From: an uncultured Ureaplasma sp.
GTDB taxonomy: Bacteria; Bacillota_I; Bacilli_A; Mycoplasmatales; Mycoplasmoidaceae
Direction of reading: 5' to 3'
NCBI GenBank assembly: GCA_944322645.1
Contig: CALUPI010000033.1
Coordinates: 1-24,000, forward strand
DNA: 24,000 nucleotides
Within the stretch, counting starts at the first letter, position 1. The number at the start of each line of letters is the position of its first letter. This document shows positions 217-14,701 of this stretch, one piece after another. The position numbers and the translations under genes were made by a program. Under the pieces are notes generated by a model, which saw only the letters and a program-made list of their open reading frames with translations, made no database searches and had not been told where the DNA came from.

Positions 217-387
217 ATGTCAAGAACTGTTATTGTTGAAGATAATGATGTTGAAAAAGCATTAAAAAAATTTAAAAGAATTGCTAATGAAACTAAAAAA
301 GATACAAAACGTCATGAATATTATTTAAGACCAGGTCTTCGTAGAAAAGAAAAATCAAAAGAAGCTAGAAAACATAAAATATATTAA
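217..387 (+). CDS. rpsU: 30S ribosomal protein bS21
   Basis: 56-codon ORF MSRTVIVEDNDVEKALKKFKRIANETKKDTKRHEYYLRPGLRRKEKSKEARKHKIY. It has the typical S21 size and basic C-terminus (EYY.RPG.RRKEK). An SD-like GAGGTGGTGA sits at 201-210. The ORF is missing from the supplied track, presumably because of its short length. Confidence 0.93.
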   Translation: MSRTVIVEDNDVEKALKKFKRIANETKKDTKRHEYYLRPGLRRKEKSKEARKHKIY

Positions 388-411
388 TACGGTTAATTCC
401 GTATTTTTTTA
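387..411 (+). terminator. Intrinsic terminator after rpsU
   Basis: Stem ATACGG (387-392) pairs with CCGTAT (399-404) around loop TTAATT, running into a T7 tract (404-410). Confidence 0.7.
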
Positions 412-471: not shown

Positions 472-2340
472 ATGAAAATAATTAATCAAACTAGTAATAA
501 TGAATGTGGCATTTGTGCTATTAATATGATAATTAATTATTATTATCATTCTGATAGAGACCGAAAATTAGAAATCTATTCATATACTAAAAACATGGAT
601 AAAAATGGAATTAGTATGATAGAAATAGAAAATATATTTCAAAAATTTAATATTAATGCTATTTCATATGAATGTAAGTTTTCTGAAATCTTTAGTATAA
701 ATTCACCATTTATAATGGTAATGAAATATAATGATAATCTTCATTATGTAGTAGGTAAAGTTAAGAATAATAAATTATATATTTATGATCCTATTGGCAA
801 AGTTAAAATTTATACTAAAAATGACAAATTAAATGAATTCTTAGGTTATGTAATATGCACTAGCTATAAAAAACAAAAAATTAAACCTATAAATTTAAAT
901 TTAAAAATTATTAAAAATGTATCAATAACAATGAATATTATTTTTACATTTATTAATACATTTGAATTCATTTTTTCATTATTAATATCATTTATTTTAT
1001 CTAAAATTGTTAATATTAATTTTGAACAAACATTTGAGGAAAGTATATGAAAAATATGTTTTATATATATTGTCATATTACTATTAAGCGAATTATTTAA
1101 TTATCTAAATAAAATTATTAAAAATTTTTATTTTTCAAAAGTATTTCCAGCAAGTATTGATATTTTCTGACAAAAAATTAATAATAAAACATCTTCTTTT
1201 TTTCAAATGTACTCAATACATGAATTATCACAAATTTATATGTATACATATAAAATAATAAATTTTATTTGTATATATACATCTGATATATTTTCAGATA
1301 TGATAGTGCTAATTTTAAGTTTTATTCTTGGAATCATTATTAATCCCCTCAATTTATATTTTTATTTATTATTAATATTAATTAATTTCTTTATTATGTA
1401 TTTAAATATAAAATTAGACAAAAAACTGGTTAATTTTGCACATAAACAAAATCCAATACATGATAAAAAAATACTCAATTTTTTTGAAAACAAAATTAAT
1501 AATATAAATTATCAAACAGACACAAAAATATCAAAAGAAATTCAACTTGAACTTAATAATACTTTATGAAAAACAATTGAAATTCAAAATAAAATAAGTT
1601 TATTAGATTGTATAGATAAAATAATCAATTCTTTAATTCAATTCATATTAATAATTTTAATAATTAAAAATGAAAATGATTTTAGCTTAATTTTTTTAAA
1701 CTTAAATATTGTAAATTTATATAATAAATCATTAAAATCAATTTTAAATTATCTAAATGAGTATTCAAATATTAACTTAATTTTGGATATAGTTAAAAAA
1801 ATATATTCTATTAATGAAAATAATAATTCAAAAATAATACCATTTAAAAAAATAGATAATATTATTATTGGTAATAATAATTATTCAAAAAATATATGTA
1901 TTAATACAAAAGATATTTTAGAAAATCCATTTATTAATAATCTAATAAATTTAAATGAATTTGACTATTCAATTAAAATAAATGGTATTGACATAAATAA
2001 AATCAATAAAAGTTTATTTATAAAAAAAATGTTAATATTAATTACCCCAAAAAAATATAAAAATAATAATATAAGTACATTTTTATCAAACTCTGTTTAT
2101 GAATATTGTTCTCAAATTGATAAGGATTTTAATAGAGAAATAAATTTATTAATAATATTATCAAATTTAATAAATGAAGAAAATAAATTAATCATTTTAA
2201 ATGATAATCTATTAGATATAGATGATGATTTTTTTCAAAAAGAAATTAAAAAAATGTTATTAGAAATTAATAAAAAAAATTTTTTAATAAGTAATTGTAA
2301 TAATAAAAAAATTATTGATATTTATGATAACTTTATCTAA
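472..2340 (+). CDS. Peptidase-C39-domain ABC exporter (PCAT, bacteriocin-processing/export type) with a degenerate nucleotide-binding domain
   Basis: Track ORFs 463-1050, 1207-1569 and 1783-2340 are all in the same frame. They are separated only by TGA codons, and I saw no TAA/TAG on reading through, giving one ORF of about 622-625 codons. The N-terminus INQTSNNECGICAINMIINYY ... NLHYVVG ... YIYDPIG matches the C39 Gln/Cys/His/Asp pattern (Q-x5-C-G, HxVV, DP). The middle holds several hydrophobic TM segments. The C-terminus aligns to an ABC NBD (IKINGIDINKI..., KLIILNDNLLDIDDD), but the Walker A, signature, Walker B Glu and H-loop are all substituted. The start is either ATG 472 (SD-like GGGTGA at 461-466) or GTG 463. 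Confidence 0.8.
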
Positions 2341-2689
2341 TCAATGAAAAAAAATTATTATTATCGTATCAATTATTATTTTTTTAATAATATTTTGCAT
2401 TTTATTTATTGTACTTTTCAAATTTGATAAATATTATGAATCGTATTTTCAAAATTATAATGGAACTGAATATTTAATTGTTAATAAACAAACATATCAT
2501 TTTTTAAATCTTCAAGGACAAATTAGTATAAAATATAATGATCTAAATTATTCTATAAATTATCAATTTATAAATAAATATGATGATATGTATGTATTTA
2601 TTACAGATTTTAATAAACAAATACAAAATAATAATATATGTTATATACTTGTTAAAAATATAACAATATTCGATTTATTGAAAGGATAA
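2324..2689 (+). CDS. Small single-pass membrane protein (121 aa); candidate accessory or immunity protein of the peptide-export locus
   Basis: ATG 2324 overlaps the PCAT stop by 17 nt. Translation: MITLSNQ-W-KKIIIIVSIIIFLIIFCILFIVLFKFDKYYESYFQNYNGTEYLIVNKQ...ITIFDLLKG*. An in-frame TGA at 2345-2347 hides it from the standard-code track. It has one strong N-terminal TM helix and then a polar domain of about 90 aa. The stop at 2687-2689 lies 1 nt before the next ATG. Confidence 0.55.
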
Positions 2690-2690
2690 T

Positions 2691-2951
2691 ATGAAAATAT
2701 TAAACAATGAAAAAAAAGTTAAAATTTATGGATCTGGTGGATACCCTTGAAACACTTCACTATTTACAGCTATGAGTTGTCAAGCGGTTAATAGTATATT
2801 AGGCTTAGTAAACCAAATTATATACAATAATAATAGTAATCCAGCTTTTAAAACTTCCAAAAGTTATGATGATACATCATCAAGAATGTATATAAGGGCA
2901 AGTAAAAATGCTTTATCATCAACATTATCATATGGGAGTCCGTATTTTTAA
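2691..2951 (+). CDS. Double-glycine-leader peptide A (86 aa precursor); candidate bacteriocin or secreted peptide
   Basis: MKILNNEKKVKIYGSGG YPWNTSLFTAMSCQAVNSILGLVNQIIYNNNSNPAFKTSKSYDDTSSRMYIRASKNALSSTLSYGSPYF*. The leader aligns without gaps to that of peptide B. There is an in-frame TGA (Trp20) at 2748-2750, and the stop at 2949-2951 overlaps the next ATG (TAATG). Confidence 0.6.
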
Positions 2952-3169
2952 TGAAACAATTAAATAATAATATTAAACAAATAAAAGCTGGTGGAATTTT
3001 TGGATATGGAGGTTGAGGTTTTGCTACAATGGCTAACGTATTAATAAATGGTGCGGTTGGGATAGTTAGTAATTCATTGAATATTGCAAATTCTGCTAAA
3101 CATTCTTCCAATCAACCAAATTATGTATATAAACCTACATTATCAACAAAATTTAATTTATTTAATTAA
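2951..3169 (+). CDS. Double-glycine-leader peptide B (72 aa precursor); candidate bacteriocin or secreted peptide
   Basis: MKQLNNNIKQIKAGG IFGYGGWGFATMANVLINGAVGIVSNSLNIANSAKHSSNQPNYVYKPTLSTKFNLFN*. It has a 15-aa leader ending in GG with Leu at -12 and Met at -15, then a Gly-rich hydrophobic core. There is an in-frame TGA (Trp22) at 3014-3016. It is translationally coupled to peptide A. Confidence 0.65.
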
Positions 3170-3973
3170 ATTATAAAAATATTTCATTTTCAAATGCATT
3201 TTTAAACGATAACGTAATATTTTCAAACTAAATGAATTAGAAAATGTTCATTGATAAGAAAAACAAATAGCTACAAAGCTCATTTCTAATAATAAGAAAT
3301 AATCTAATTTTGCAATTTCACTATATATTAATATTTCATTCTTTTTTCATATAGTTTCTTTAATTAAATTAGCAAAATCTCAATATGGATGATTAATTCT
3401 TGATCATTCAAAATCAATAAACTTAATTTTATTATTATTCGAGATTAAGATATTTTCTAAATTTAAGTCATTATGACTAAAACCCCAAAAAGTAGTAGAA
3501 ATTTTTTCTACTATTTTTTTGTATTTTGTTAAATATATTTTTTTTAATTTACATTTTGGTAAAAAAATATAATAGTCATGTCTTAAAATATTAGAACCAG
3601 AAACATCAAGTGAATGATATTGGTTAATTTCATTAAAAATATTATTTAAAATATCTCTATTTTTGAGATCCTTTTTGTTTAATACTCTGCCTTTAATTCA
3701 AATTTTTATAGCATTTCCATTTTTTATATCATAATACAAATAATCATTATTATGAATTAGATTTAAACATCTATATTCATTATTTCTATTGACAATATCA
3801 TTATTATTCCCAATTCTGACTTGATATTTATTATTATCATTCATAATAAAGCAAAAAGAAGTGTTAGTAAAACCATGATGTATTTTTTTAATAAATTTAA
3901 TATCATCTAATTTATATTTATTTTTAAAAAAAGTTAAAAACATTTTGATTGCAATTTTTTTTGATTTAATCAT
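3158..3973 (-). CDS. Choline/aminoglycoside phosphotransferase-family kinase (LicA/APH-like)
   Basis: Track ORF 3698-3973 continues through four TGA codons to TAA at 3160-3158 (271 aa). It contains GFTNTSF (nucleotide-binding region), the Brenner catalytic motif HNDLNLENIL (HxDxxxxN) and IDFEW (the DxE/DFG-equivalent), typical of choline-kinase/APH-fold enzymes. Confidence 0.7.
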
Positions 3974-7517: not shown

Positions 7518-8610
7518 ATGAGAGAAAAAAATAAATTAAATTGATCAATCATTCTATTATTTTTATTTATTACAACTATAATTATGTTTTATAGTTTTAT
7601 ATCAGCATGATATTTAATAATAATGATTCCTATCATTATATATTTTATAATCACAAAAATAAATAAAAAAATTTGAATTTACTTAATCTTAACAATAATA
7701 ATTGTATGTATATTTTATATAATCCAAAATTATTGGAAATCCAATATTAATATATTTAACAATTATTTATCTAATACAAATTTTTATTCAGGAAGAGATT
7801 GACTATTAAATAAAATAAACCAGCTTTATAAAAATGAATATTCTAATGAATTTATTAAATTATTAATGTTTAATGAAAAAAATTATTATGGAAATTTTTA
7901 TCAAAATGTTAGCAATTTAGGAATTACTTATCTATTTGTAATTTCAGGAATGCATATAAATATAATACTATTACCATTACGTTATATATTTAGAAAAAAA
8001 AATCCATATATTTTATTATTTTTCAATAATTTTTTGTTTTTTATATGGCTATGTTTTACAATATTCAATTAGTCTTCTTAGGATTTTATTGACAAATATT
8101 ATTAGACTATTGAGTAAAAATAAAATCAACAATATTAGTGCAACTATTATTAGTGGTTGAATATTAATAATTTTATTTAATACAATTTGTTATTCATCTA
8201 GTTTTATAATGTCCTATCTAACCACACTATTAATAATTTGAATGAACAAAATTATAAAAAATAGAATTATAATGTTTTTTGCAATTAATGTTTTTTGTTT
8301 TTTATTAACAATACCTATAATATTAAAAATAAATCCAAAAATTAATATTTTTATTTTTTTCTATAATTTATTATTTTGCAACTTAATTTCATTTATATAT
8401 ATCTTTTTATTTATATTTATGTTTATTCCACAATTTGCAATTATTAATGAAAAAATAATCATTTTTCTTCAAGATTTAATAACTTTTTCTAATATTAATT
8501 CTATTTTTATTCATATTTCTAAATTTTTTTCATGATCAAATAGTATATATTTTTCAGCATTTTTAGGGATTTTTTTAATTATTTTGCATAAAAATGAAAA
8601 AAAATTTTAA
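7518..8610 (+). pseudogene. comEC: ComEC/Rec2-family competence membrane channel, interrupted by a +1 frame change in a T-rich tract (pseudogene, sequencing error or slippage-dependent)
   Basis: The frame-0 part runs 7518-8072 (MREKNKLN-W-SIILLF...NLGITYLFVISGMHINIIL..., the ComEC SGxH motif) and ends at TAG 8070-8072. The homologous continuation is in frame +1 from about 8041 to TAA 8608-8610 (...LYGYVLQYSISLLRILLTNII..., equivalent to G.s.S.lRa..m of ComEC). The frames overlap around the T5-G-T6 tract at 8031-8042. Confidence 0.65.
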
Positions 8611-10450: not shown

Positions 10451-12883
10451 ATGTACAATCATAATAAAATAGAAAAAAAATGACAAGAATATTGACAAAA
10501 AAATCATACATTTAAATTCGTAGATGAAATAAATAAACCAAAATTTTATATTTTAGACATGTTTCCATATCCTTCAGGAGCTGGTTTACATGTTGGACAC
10601 CCAAAAGGATATACTGCCTCTGATGTTATTAGTAGATTTAAAAGATTAAATGGTTATAGTGTTCTTCACCCTATTGGATGAGATGCATTTGGATTACCAG
10701 CAGAACAATATGCTGTTAAAACTAATAATCATCCAAAGGATTTTACTCAACTTAATATTAACAATTTTAGAAAACAATTAATTTCCTTGGGATTTGATTA
10801 TGATTATGATAAGGAAGTAAATACAACTGATCCAAAATACTTTAGATGAACTCAATGAATTTTTATTCAATTATATAAACAAGGTTTGGCTGAAATAAAA
10901 GATATTGATGTAAATTGATGTGAAGGATTGAAGGCAGTATTAGCTAATGAAGAAGTTATCTTAAATAAAGATGGAGAAAGAGTAAGTGAAATTGGTGGCT
11001 TTCCAGTGGTAAGAAAACCAATGAGACAATGAGTTTTAAAAATAACAAAATATGCTGATAAATTAATTGATGGATTAAATGAATTAGATTGACCAGAAAG
11101 TTTAAAAAATATTCAAAGAAAATGAATAGGTAGAACTGAAGGAACAAATATTAATTTTAAAGTGGAAAATAGTGATAATATTATTCAAGTGTTTACAACT
11201 AGAATTGATACAATTTATGGAGTTAGTTACTTAGTTTTATCTCCAAAGCATCCCCTTGTAAAATCATTAACTACGAATGATAATTTGGAAATAGTCAACA
11301 AATATATTGATGAGTATAACAAGTTATCAGACCGTGATATTAAAAAAGATATTAAACATAAATCTGGAGCATTTTTAGGCAGCTATGCAATTAACCCAAT
11401 TAATAATGAAAAAATTCCAATATATATATCAAACTATGTAGTGGCAGGAGTAGGAACTGAAGCTGTAATGGGTGTTCCTGCACATGATGAAAATGATTTT
11501 GAATTTGCTAAATTATTTAATTTACCAATAATTCCAGTAATTAATACAAATAATGAATTACCATACCTTGAAAATGGCAAACACATTAATAGTGGAATAA
11601 TTGATGGATTAGAAAATCCTGAGGCATATAATAAAATGCAAGAATATGTAATTAATAATAATTTGGGAAGTAAACAAGTAAATTATAAATTAAAAGATTG
11701 GATTTTTAGTCGTCAAAGATATTGAGGAGAACCTATTCCAGTACTATTTGATGAAAATAATAATATTGTTTTAGATGAAAACTTACCTTTATTATTACCT
11801 GAATTAACAGATTTTAAGCCTAGTGATAATGGTGAAAGTCCGTTATTAAAGGCAAAAGAATGATTATATGTTAATATTGATGGAAAAATGTATAAAAGAG
11901 ATACTAATACAATGCCACAATGAGCTGGATCATGTTGGTATTATTTGGGTTATTTATTAAAACAACCTAATAATATTTATATTGATTTAAATTCAAACCA
12001 AGCCAAAGAAATATTTAGTAGATGATTACCTGTTGATGTTTATATTGGTGGAGTGGAACATGCAGTATTACATTTATTATATGCAAGATTTTGACATCAT
12101 GTACTATATGATATTGGTGTTGTTGATAAACCTGAACCATTCTTTAAAATGCTTAATCAAGGTTTAATATTAGGTGAAGATGGGGAAAAAATGTCTAAAT
12201 CAAAAGGTAATACTGTAAATTGTAGTGAAATTGTTGAATCTCATGGGGCTGATACACTTAGAGTCTATGAATTATTTATGGGACCATTAACTGTATCAAT
12301 GCCATGAAAAACATCTTCCTTAGATGGTACTAGAAAATGATTAGATAGAGTTTATCGTTTGTATGATATTAATAATAATTCTGATATTATAGTTGAAAAT
12401 GACATAAATAAACTTGATAATGAATTAGTAGTTGCTTATAATAGTTTAGTTAAAAAAATTACTAATGATATGGAAAACTATAGATTTAATATTGCAATAT
12501 CTAATATGATGGTTTTTATTAATCAAGTTTATAAATCAAAACAGTTTAATAATGATATTATGAGCAATTTTGCAATAATATTGTCTTGTTTTGCTCCACA
12601 TTTAGGTGAAGAATTATATCATTTAATTAATCCAAATGCAAATTCAGTTGCATGAGTAACATGACCTAAATTTGATGAATCCAAATTACAAAATGACTAT
12701 GTCAAAATTCCAGTGAATATTAATAATAAAGTTAGAGATGTAATTGAAGTTCCAATTGATTTGAGCGATGATGAATTATTAGCATTAGCATTAAAATCAG
12801 AGAATGTTCAAAAATATATTTCAAATAATCCAATCAAAAAAACAATTATTGTCAAAAATAAAATTATTAATATTATTATTTAG
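10451..12883 (+). CDS. leuS: Leucine--tRNA ligase
   Basis: [21 protein letters not shown]...[18 protein letters not shown] (HIGH motif)...[16 protein letters not shown]...EKMSKSKGN (KMSKS). All track fragments (11162, 12359) share the frame with ATG 10451. It contains many in-frame TGA=Trp codons and ends at TAG 12881-12883 (810 aa). Confidence 0.96.
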
Positions 12884-14621: not shown

Positions 14622-14701
14622 TGGGGCGACTAACGGGGCTCGAACCCGTGAAAATACCTGAGTCACAGTCAGGCGTGTTAACCAACTTCACCATAATCGC
14701 C
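14622..14701 (-). tRNA. tRNA-His (anticodon GTG) with encoded G-1 and CCA
   Basis: The reverse complement is GGCGATTATGGTGAAGTTGGTTAACACGCCTGACTGTGACTCAGGTATTTTCACGGGTTCGAGCCCCGTTAGTCGCCCCA. The acceptor stem is GCGATTA/TAGTCGC with an extra 5' G pairing C73 (a His identity element). The anticodon arm is CCTGA-CTGTGAC-TCAGG, the T-arm is ACGGG-TTCGAGC-CCCGT, and it ends in a 3' CCA. The variable region looks slightly long (7 nt) by my hand fold. Confidence 0.85.

Follow-up and report, generated by a model that had tools for sequence, protein, structure and literature searches.

In a 24,000-nucleotide (nt) stretch of DNA from an uncultured Ureaplasma sp. (GenBank assembly GCA_944322645.1, contig CALUPI010000033.1, positions 1 to 24,000; hereafter the window), two adjacent small genes encode the precursors of peptide A (86 amino acids (aa), positions 2691-2951, plus strand) and peptide B (72 aa, 2951-3169, plus strand), which share a double-glycine (GG)-type leader on unrelated cores and stand in one module with a protein bearing a C39 cysteine-peptidase domain. 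Their description as double-glycine-leader substrates of this adjacent C39 protein is well supported by the comparative sequence data, and we lean, though not strongly, towards the reading that A and B form a cognate precursor pair, cut by the neighbouring C39 domain and delivered into or across the membrane, its most conventional role being bacteriocin-like. The label of class IIb bacteriocin is not established.

The window has a G+C content of ~20%, and its long open frames are seen only when TGA is read as Trp (translation table 4). Under this code the peptide A product begins with MKILNNEKKVKIYGSGGYPWNTS and ends with SPYF (full sequence MKILNNEKKVKIYGSGGYPWNTSLFTAMSCQAVNSILGLVNQIIYNNNSNPAFKTSKSYDDTSSRMYIRASKNALSSTLSYGSPYF), and the peptide B product begins with MKQLNNNIKQIKAGGIFGYGGWGF and ends with NLFN (full sequence MKQLNNNIKQIKAGGIFGYGGWGFATMANVLINGAVGIVSNSLNIANSAKHSSNQPNYVYKPTLSTKFNLFN). 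The module is completed upstream by a 622-aa protein resembling those ATP-binding cassette (ABC) transporters that contain a peptidase (PCATs; 472-2340, plus strand), identified by a Pfam Peptidase_C39 match and by ComA/PCAT1 profile and fold matches, and by a 121-aa accessory protein (2324-2689, plus strand), whose gene overlaps the transporter gene by 17 nt and stops 1 nt short of peptide A. A Shine-Dalgarno-like GAAAGGA lies 5' of the peptide A gene. The coupling of the two peptide genes that was originally described holds, the peptide A stop and the peptide B start overlapping in TAATG at 2949-2953 with one A in common, and the same sharing of end and start coordinates occurs in four other loci (L007, L033, L034 and L037).

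Leader peptides and predicted cleavage sites

Leader A, MKILNNEKKVKIYGS(G) (2691-2738, plus strand), and leader B, MKQLNNNIKQIKAGG (2951-2995, plus strand), are identical at 7 of 15 positions, exactly those listed in the original prediction (M1, K2, L4, N5, N6, K9 and G14), and end in GS and GG, respectively. A chance check drew on the ATG-started frames with 30 codons or more that this AT-rich window contains. The 226 other frames matched leader A at no more than 6/15 residues and leader B at no more than 5/15, and a GG-type pair at residues 14-15 was present in 4 of 228 frames; the identity of 7/15, in a single K/N/I-rich genome, is modestly unusual when taken alone, and suggestive rather than compelling. 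Comparison of family profiles was more informative, since the leader profiles of A and B scored 29.1 in hhalign versus 6.5 ± 1.7 (maximum 11.2) for 60 column shuffles, about 13 standard deviations above, whereas the core profiles scored 11.0 versus 10.4 ± 2.3 for shuffles, with no detectable relation. The proposal of paralogous, GG-type leaders on unrelated cores is confirmed at this level of profile comparison. Homology of the A and B cores was considered and set aside; full-length hhalign returned a probability of 87-90%, but this signal was derived wholly from the leaders, the cores alone scoring like shuffles.

Across the family, the leader follows the consensus M-x-K-[LI]-x4-K-x2-[ILY]-x-[GAS]-G, being 13-16 residues long, hydrophilic and without the hydrophobic core of general secretory (Sec)-type signals. 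The search for relatives that had been suggested with the original prediction yielded further pairs, among them those of U. urealyticum (leaders MQKMSNNFKQEYYGG and MQVIVNKSAIYGG) and U. diversum (leaders MQKLNHHLKLESIGG and MRLLKHEQKEIAGG), with canonical GG or AG ends among the distant members. These leaders terminate in NLYGG, EYYGG, DITGG, ESIGG and ILYAG in distant peptide A members, and in NIVGG, AIYGG, EIAGG, KLNAG and EISAG in distant peptide B members. For peptide B, cleavage is predicted after G15, and residues 14-15 (15-16 in leaders longer by one) read GG, AG, GS, SG or QG in 13 aligned sequences.

For peptide A, the homologues align YGG, YAG, IGG and TGG at residues 13-15, while the sub-clade of the window ends its leader in IYGSG (window) and IYASG or LSGMG (relatives), S15 and G16 being invariant in the closest lineages. 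A cut after S15, by homology to YGG/YAG, and a cut after the invariant G16 are predicted with equal compatibility. The second GG of peptide A (G16-G17), which had also been offered as a cleavage site, was rejected, as sister lineages read GN, GK, GI or GT there.

The recognition rule described for ComA and LahT calls for a helical leader with hydrophobic residues at -4, -7 and -12 and Glu at -8 (PMC6363468). Position -12 (residue 4) is L, I or M almost universally, in line with the hydrophobic -12 originally noted, and position -4 (residue 12) is mostly hydrophobic, with I12 in leader A of the window but K12 in leader B. In an AlphaFold2 model of peptide A (17 sequences; predicted local distance difference test (pLDDT) 67), a leader helix spans residues 2-14 and is broken at GSGG, after which come a helix of 29 residues (19-47) and, at the C terminus, a small hairpin; the predicted leader helix and break match the geometry of leaders bound to the protease LahT (PMC6363468).

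Within the species, the peptide B leader (2951-2995) differs from those of four other strains (L001-L004) by 4-5 non-synonymous and 0 synonymous changes, with a conserved core; the variants include NNNIKQ versus SKDIKK and GG versus AG, and although the numbers are small, this is an odd site for fast change. Judged from these alignments, the phrase 'conserved leader, divergent core', as used in the original prediction, is true between the paralogues and not between orthologues.

Orthologues and purifying selection

Orthologous A and B pairs were found in 14 lineages of the Ureaplasma clade, down to ~30% identity, the named species being U. urealyticum, U. diversum, U. ceti and Candidatus U. 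intestinipullorum. Besides the same-species strains L001-L004 (the contig of a further one, L005, ends inside peptide A), the pair is carried by a sister lineage (L007-L014), by Candidatus U. intestinipullorum (L015, L016 and L019), by a bird-gut lineage (L017), by L018, by U. ceti (L020) and by an uncultured Ureaplasma sp. (L022). An exhaustive hidden Markov model (HMM) search of 1.8 billion representative proteins with the peptide A profile added U. urealyticum, U. diversum and four uncultured lineages (L033-L037). Part of the lineage set was thus gathered with peptide A as query, which biases any claim of its universal presence. The U. urealyticum and U. diversum peptides are annotated as hypothetical only (e.g., ACI59936.1 and AJQ45517.1).

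The ratio of non-synonymous to synonymous substitution rates (dN/dS) of the cores was 0.11-0.19 versus same-species strains and L007, where dS is unsaturated, and ~0.26-0.32 versus L015. The comparison across strains, proposed at the outset as a test of constraint, showed intact orthologues. Relative to L007, dN was 0.16 for peptide A, 0.18 for the housekeeping gene gpsA, 0.28 for peptide B, 0.39 for the accessory gene and 0.40 for the transporter gene.

The TGA-encoded Trp soon after each leader, a feature highlighted originally, was borne out as Trp20 of peptide A (2748-2750, plus strand), inside a conserved YPWN motif, and as Trp22 of peptide B (3014-3016, plus strand), inside a conserved GGWG motif. 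TGA is kept at the homologous position of peptide A in 8 of the 8 lineages examined; in peptide B most lineages likewise use TGA, U. ceti has TGG and L002 has TTA (Leu), and this TGA/TGG switch, together with the TTA change, means that TGA behaves as a sense codon. In the L002 orthologue of peptide B (11196-11414), Leu stands in place of Trp22 in an otherwise conserved GGWG.

From this comparative evidence, both peptide open reading frames (ORFs), as first read with table 4, are genuine genes under purifying selection. The contrary view would treat them as chance frames or decaying remnants of an AT-rich genome, with leaders alike in composition only; a K/N/I-rich composition indeed raises the background N-terminal identity up to 6/15, and no family model matches either peptide. 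Set against it are the intact orthologues in 14 lineages with dN/dS well below 1, the conserved motifs, the start/stop coupling and a leader profile score far above shuffles, by which it is effectively refuted as far as sequence data can decide, and we give it hardly any credence.

The C39 protein, its accessory and the four-gene module

The C39 domain of the 622-aa protein covers residues 2-132 (nt 475-867; Pfam Peptidase_C39, PF03412, E 4e-21). Of its catalytic set Q6/C12/H91/D106, the first three residues are the same in 13 of 13 Mollicute homologues, in which position 106 is filled by either Asp or Asn. A ComA/PCAT1-like transmembrane domain follows at ~140-455, and then a vestigial nucleotide-binding-like domain at ~458-622, in which the C-terminal ~165 residues still bear a slight resemblance to what follows the P-loop (...IKINGIDL...). 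With the single protein as query, phmmer gave no match in the PDB, but a five-sequence profile matched Streptococcus pneumoniae ComA (8hf4, E 8e-15) over residues 10-456 only, that is, peptidase and membrane domains, and also PCAT1. The top 15 Foldseek hits of its AlphaFold2 model (pLDDT 62) were PCAT1 and HlyB, with PCAT1 the best.

Among curated families, the 622-aa protein came closest to NCBIfam NF045998 (Mbov_0121 family peptidase domain-containing ABC transporter), scoring 121.3 bits versus a cutoff of 500, and its nearest named relative, at 50% identity, is from Candidatus Ureaplasma intestinipullorum. The window is accordingly assigned to an uncultured Mollicute of the Ureaplasma clade with genetic code 4. 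The accessory protein has one N-terminal transmembrane helix and an extracytoplasmic part of ~85 aa; it matches NF045999 (MAG1140 family) weakly (E 4.3e-5, 23.7 bits versus a cutoff of 35), as does its U. ceti orthologue (E 2.2e-4, below cutoff), and it is present in all 11 full modules. Judged by these scores, the two proteins are distant relatives of the Mycoplasma-specific NF045998/NF045999 pair, not members of it, although the best hits are nearly full length.

The link to the upstream C39 protein that had been proposed is upheld by gene order, the series C39 protein, ~120-aa protein, A and B being intact in 11 of the 14 lineages, with overlapping or abutting frames. The module lies in at least four genomic contexts, with rpsU, ruvX and a major facilitator superfamily gene among the upstream flanks and a choline-kinase-like gene, a pair of ABC exporters and a dUTPase gene among the downstream ones, and this shared order across differing flanks argues for a functional unit.

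Six more distant Mycoplasmataceae metagenome-assembled genomes (MAGs) have the C39 gene without accessory gene or peptides alongside. In these termite-gut and other MAGs (L021, L023 and L025-L028) the C39 protein is ATPase-dead and 595-625 aa long; valS directly follows its gene in L021, L025 and L026, and other unrelated genes do so in the remainder.

Because the partner protein finds its best sequence match in the PDB in ComA, and GG-leader pheromones are a known substrate class (PMC6363468), A and B might also be imagined as secreted signals, like the ComC and BlpC pheromones processed by ComA/BlpA-type PCATs. We regard this as very improbable, given that no histidine kinase or response regulator was seen in the module or flanks of any lineage and that two different peptides occur as a fixed pair. 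Moreover, at 57-70 aa and with a hydrophobic helix, the predicted mature peptides are far above pheromone size, typical GG-leader pheromones having ~17-30 aa.

Predicted mature peptides

Predicted mature A has ~70 aa (7.8 kDa, isoelectric point 9.3) and predicted mature B ~57 aa (6.1 kDa, isoelectric point 9.7). Each core is cationic and has one moderately hydrophobic helix (Kyte-Doolittle 19-residue maximum 0.85-2.0), and small-xxx-small counts in the family members lie between 0 and 7. Peptide A has a polar, strongly conserved C-terminal part (YDDTSS...RAGKNA.SST.S.GSPYF), G82 being invariant and P84 nearly so. Neither peptide-family profile matched anything but noise among PDB sequences, and Foldseek, queried with the model of peptide A, likewise gave noise only, so that no structural relative emerged.

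Weak single matches were treated as chance, among them one to MPN313 (E 0.026) and, in one member, one to Lactococcin_972 (E 0.05). MPN313, a family of small M. pneumoniae proteins, was hit by peptide B of the window (2951-3169), and its orthologues from U. ceti and L017 gave no NCBIfam match at E ≤ 0.001.

Possible roles of the peptide pair

According to the reading that we favour, A and B would be made by the ribosome as precursors, each with a hydrophilic, helical, GG-type leader of ~15 residues, and the PCAT-like protein, whose gene lies two genes upstream in this tight operon, would recognise the leaders with its C39 cysteine-peptidase domain and remove them, presumably at the predicted sites. 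The mature peptides would then enter or cross the single membrane, either by way of the ComA/PCAT1-like transmembrane domain or beside it, possibly as true export, with the ~120-aa accessory protein helping delivery. As the most conventional role for such a pair, they could act at the cell surface as a two-peptide, membrane-active (bacteriocin-like) effector on a putative biological target.

Several observations weigh against this reading, the first of which concern recognition and transport. In several lineages the P2/P1 residues of peptide A are non-canonical (GS, AS, GM, QG and KG), and position -7, rightly described at the outset as imperfect, is an almost invariant Lys (K9), not Leu, while -8 is variable, without the Glu of the recognition rule. 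In the 622-aa protein, a motif scan found no Walker A, signature or Walker B motif, and among its 13 Mollicute homologues Walker A and signature were absent in all and no more than 2 had a Walker-B-like hexamer; the expected motifs were seen in the positive controls, two canonical ABC exporters of L035. Since Walker A and signature are missing and Walker B is not conserved, transport of the classical PCAT kind cannot operate, and with a vestigial nucleotide-binding domain, ATP hydrolysis in the 622-aa protein cannot drive peptide delivery. On its motif content, this protein derives from a PCAT and has kept a competent protease, while its ATPase is dead.

The association with the protease is also incomplete, as three lineages, U. 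urealyticum, U. diversum and L033, have the pair but no adjoining C39 gene in the local neighbourhood. In U. urealyticum (L030, 6001-6891) and U. diversum (L031, 6001-6930), where both leaders end in GG, the pair has rnhB on one side and a DivIVA-domain gene plus acpS on the other; in L033 it adjoins a choline-kinase-like gene. A 594-aa gene near the U. urealyticum pair was considered as a hidden C39 protein and rejected, having no C39 motif.

Pfam and NCBIfam scans of 18 A and 13 B members found no GG-leader or bacteriocin model, the matches at E ≤ 1 being scattered noise only. Other points bear on the bacteriocin role. No immunity gene is evident at the locus, where the 121-aa accessory, which moves together with the transporter, is the only small gene besides the peptides, and the downstream gene is a convergent choline-kinase-like one. 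GxxxG is absent from the cores of the window; in the A family only 4 of 18 members have it, in the B family only 3 of 13, and its positions are not homologous. Furthermore, the pair is vertically conserved and syntenic across the genus, with peptide A as slow as gpsA and both peptides slower than the transporter. The usual pattern of a bacteriocin locus is the opposite of slow peptides beside a faster transporter.

These last features speak for a rival reading, in which the same C39 processing would release conserved small membrane or surface proteins that Ureaplasma itself needs, for example for its envelope, division or host interface, the ATPase-dead PCAT relic serving as leader peptidase and insertase, not as exporter. 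We consider it a serious rival, though on the unlikely side. It would account for a peptide A constrained like gpsA and more than the transporter and accessory genes, for a single-copy pair, syntenic in every Ureaplasma-clade lineage examined, the four named species included, for the missing immunity gene and for a nucleotide-binding domain dead in all homologues examined. The polar, conserved C-terminal tail of peptide A would likewise suggest a specific protein partner, not lipid disruption, and the pair adjoins a DivIVA-domain gene in U. urealyticum and U. diversum. This DivIVA neighbourhood is, however, seen in two species only, and presence in all lineages is a biased observation, peptide A having served as query. 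We know of no family of housekeeping micro-proteins with GG leaders, and conserved bacteriocins do exist, the class IIa pediocin-like peptides keeping 40-60% identity across genera. Its fullest form, in which the Ureaplasma clade would have turned a PCAT exporter into an ATP-independent leader peptidase/insertase whose two peptide clients, conserved to great depth, would be core parts of its own envelope or host interface, not bacteriocins, and the first substrates for the orphan Mollicute C39 'ABC' proteins (the family of Mbov_0121 and possibly of gene 0401 in the minimal cell JCVI-syn3A), is put forward tentatively and strikes us as a shade more doubtful still.

Relation to known systems

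The best sequence and fold matches are the PCAT systems, also termed ABC-transporter maturation and secretion (AMS) systems, such as PCAT1-CtA of Clostridium thermocellum, ComAB-ComC and BlpAB of S. pneumoniae, and LahT. As in these, an N-terminal C39 domain with the Q/C/H/D set is fused to a six-helix, type-IV-exporter-like membrane domain, and the candidate substrates are encoded alongside, with short helical leaders ending in a small residue plus Gly. The differences lie in the C-terminal domain, which besides lacking Walker A, signature and conserved Walker B is ~70 residues shorter, in the leader, with its conserved Lys at -7 and no Glu at -8, and in the accessory, a single-pass protein of ~120 aa unlike ComB or HlyD.

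The likeness to class IIb bacteriocins (lactococcin G, plantaricin EF/JK, brochocin C and thermophilin 13), to which the original prediction had pointed, holds in part. Two adjacent coupled genes, GG-type leaders, cationic helix-bearing cores and a dedicated C39 protein in the locus are common to both; the comparison fails at the absent immunity gene, the unconserved GxxxG and the transporter without ATPase motifs, as well as at the vertical, genus-wide conservation under strong purifying selection. As to size, class IIb peptides have ~25-60 aa, a range that fits B (~57 aa) and leaves out A (~70 aa, with its long conserved polar tail).

The orphan Mollicute C39 'ABC transporters' (NF045998 with NF045999; gene 0401 of JCVI-syn3A) are the group to which the 622-aa and 121-aa proteins of the window come nearest, as sub-threshold relatives of the two models. 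Unlike those, the proteins described here have a candidate substrate pair directly downstream. Their scores are far below the cutoffs, and kinship to syn3A 0401 is a possibility. In the JCVI-syn3A reconstruction, no candidate GG-motif peptide was known for mycoplasmal C39 proteins, and for want of an identifiable GG substrate its C39 copy was given a speculative lipoate-import role (PMC6609329). Our literature search found no description of a GG-leader peptide or bacteriocin in Ureaplasma or Mycoplasma, and no functional study of Mbov_0121, MAG1140 or MMSYN1_0401, Mbov_0121 appearing only as a CylB-like hit in tables of virulence factors.

The class of GG leader plus C39 peptidase is well known; the novelty lies in the peptide families, in the way they are conserved throughout a genus of Mollicutes and in the ATPase-dead partner. 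The locus gives the Mollicute C39 proteins their first candidate substrates, two conserved peptides beside such a protein, and two pathogens, U. urealyticum of humans and U. diversum of cattle, carry the same pair under the annotation of hypothetical proteins. The loss of ATPase motifs across the Mollicute branch examined raises the question of how a GG-leader peptide moves without ATP. Either outcome would be new, be it the first Mollicute bacteriocin or a housekeeping pair processed through GG leaders.

Other features of the window

Upstream of the module, rpsU (ribosomal protein S21; 217-387) is found in identical copy in several metagenome assemblies and one MAG. It is followed on its 3' side by a terminator-like hairpin with a 7-bp stem and a T-run (386-405, plus strand), which parts rpsU from the four genes, and the promoter of the module is therefore expected in 406-471. 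A promoter scan, in DNA so rich in AT, was uninformative (69 sites versus 61 expected), and no T-box or ribosomal-protein leader was found in the window at Rfam thresholds; the sole RNA gene detected in it is a tRNA-His (GTG) at 14622-14700, minus strand.

On the other side, the choline/ethanolamine-kinase-like (LicA-type) gene (3158-3973, minus strand) is convergent with peptide B, whose final 12 nt it overlaps, and such a gene keeps its place beside the peptide pair in most lineages, even at the C39-less L033 locus. In Candidatus U. intestinipullorum (L015, 1-1772), Cas1 and Cas2 genes lie a few kb upstream of the module, and the gene-free stretch after them probably holds a locus of clustered regularly interspaced short palindromic repeats (CRISPR); these features are absent from the equivalent part of the window. 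Lastly, a ComEC-like gene ('Competence', PF03772) is split in the window into ORFs of 184 and 133 aa (7518-8072 and 8209-8610) and is also split in L002; it is intact in L001 (363 aa) and L007 (359 aa), and the split form may be a strain-specific pseudogene or frameshift.

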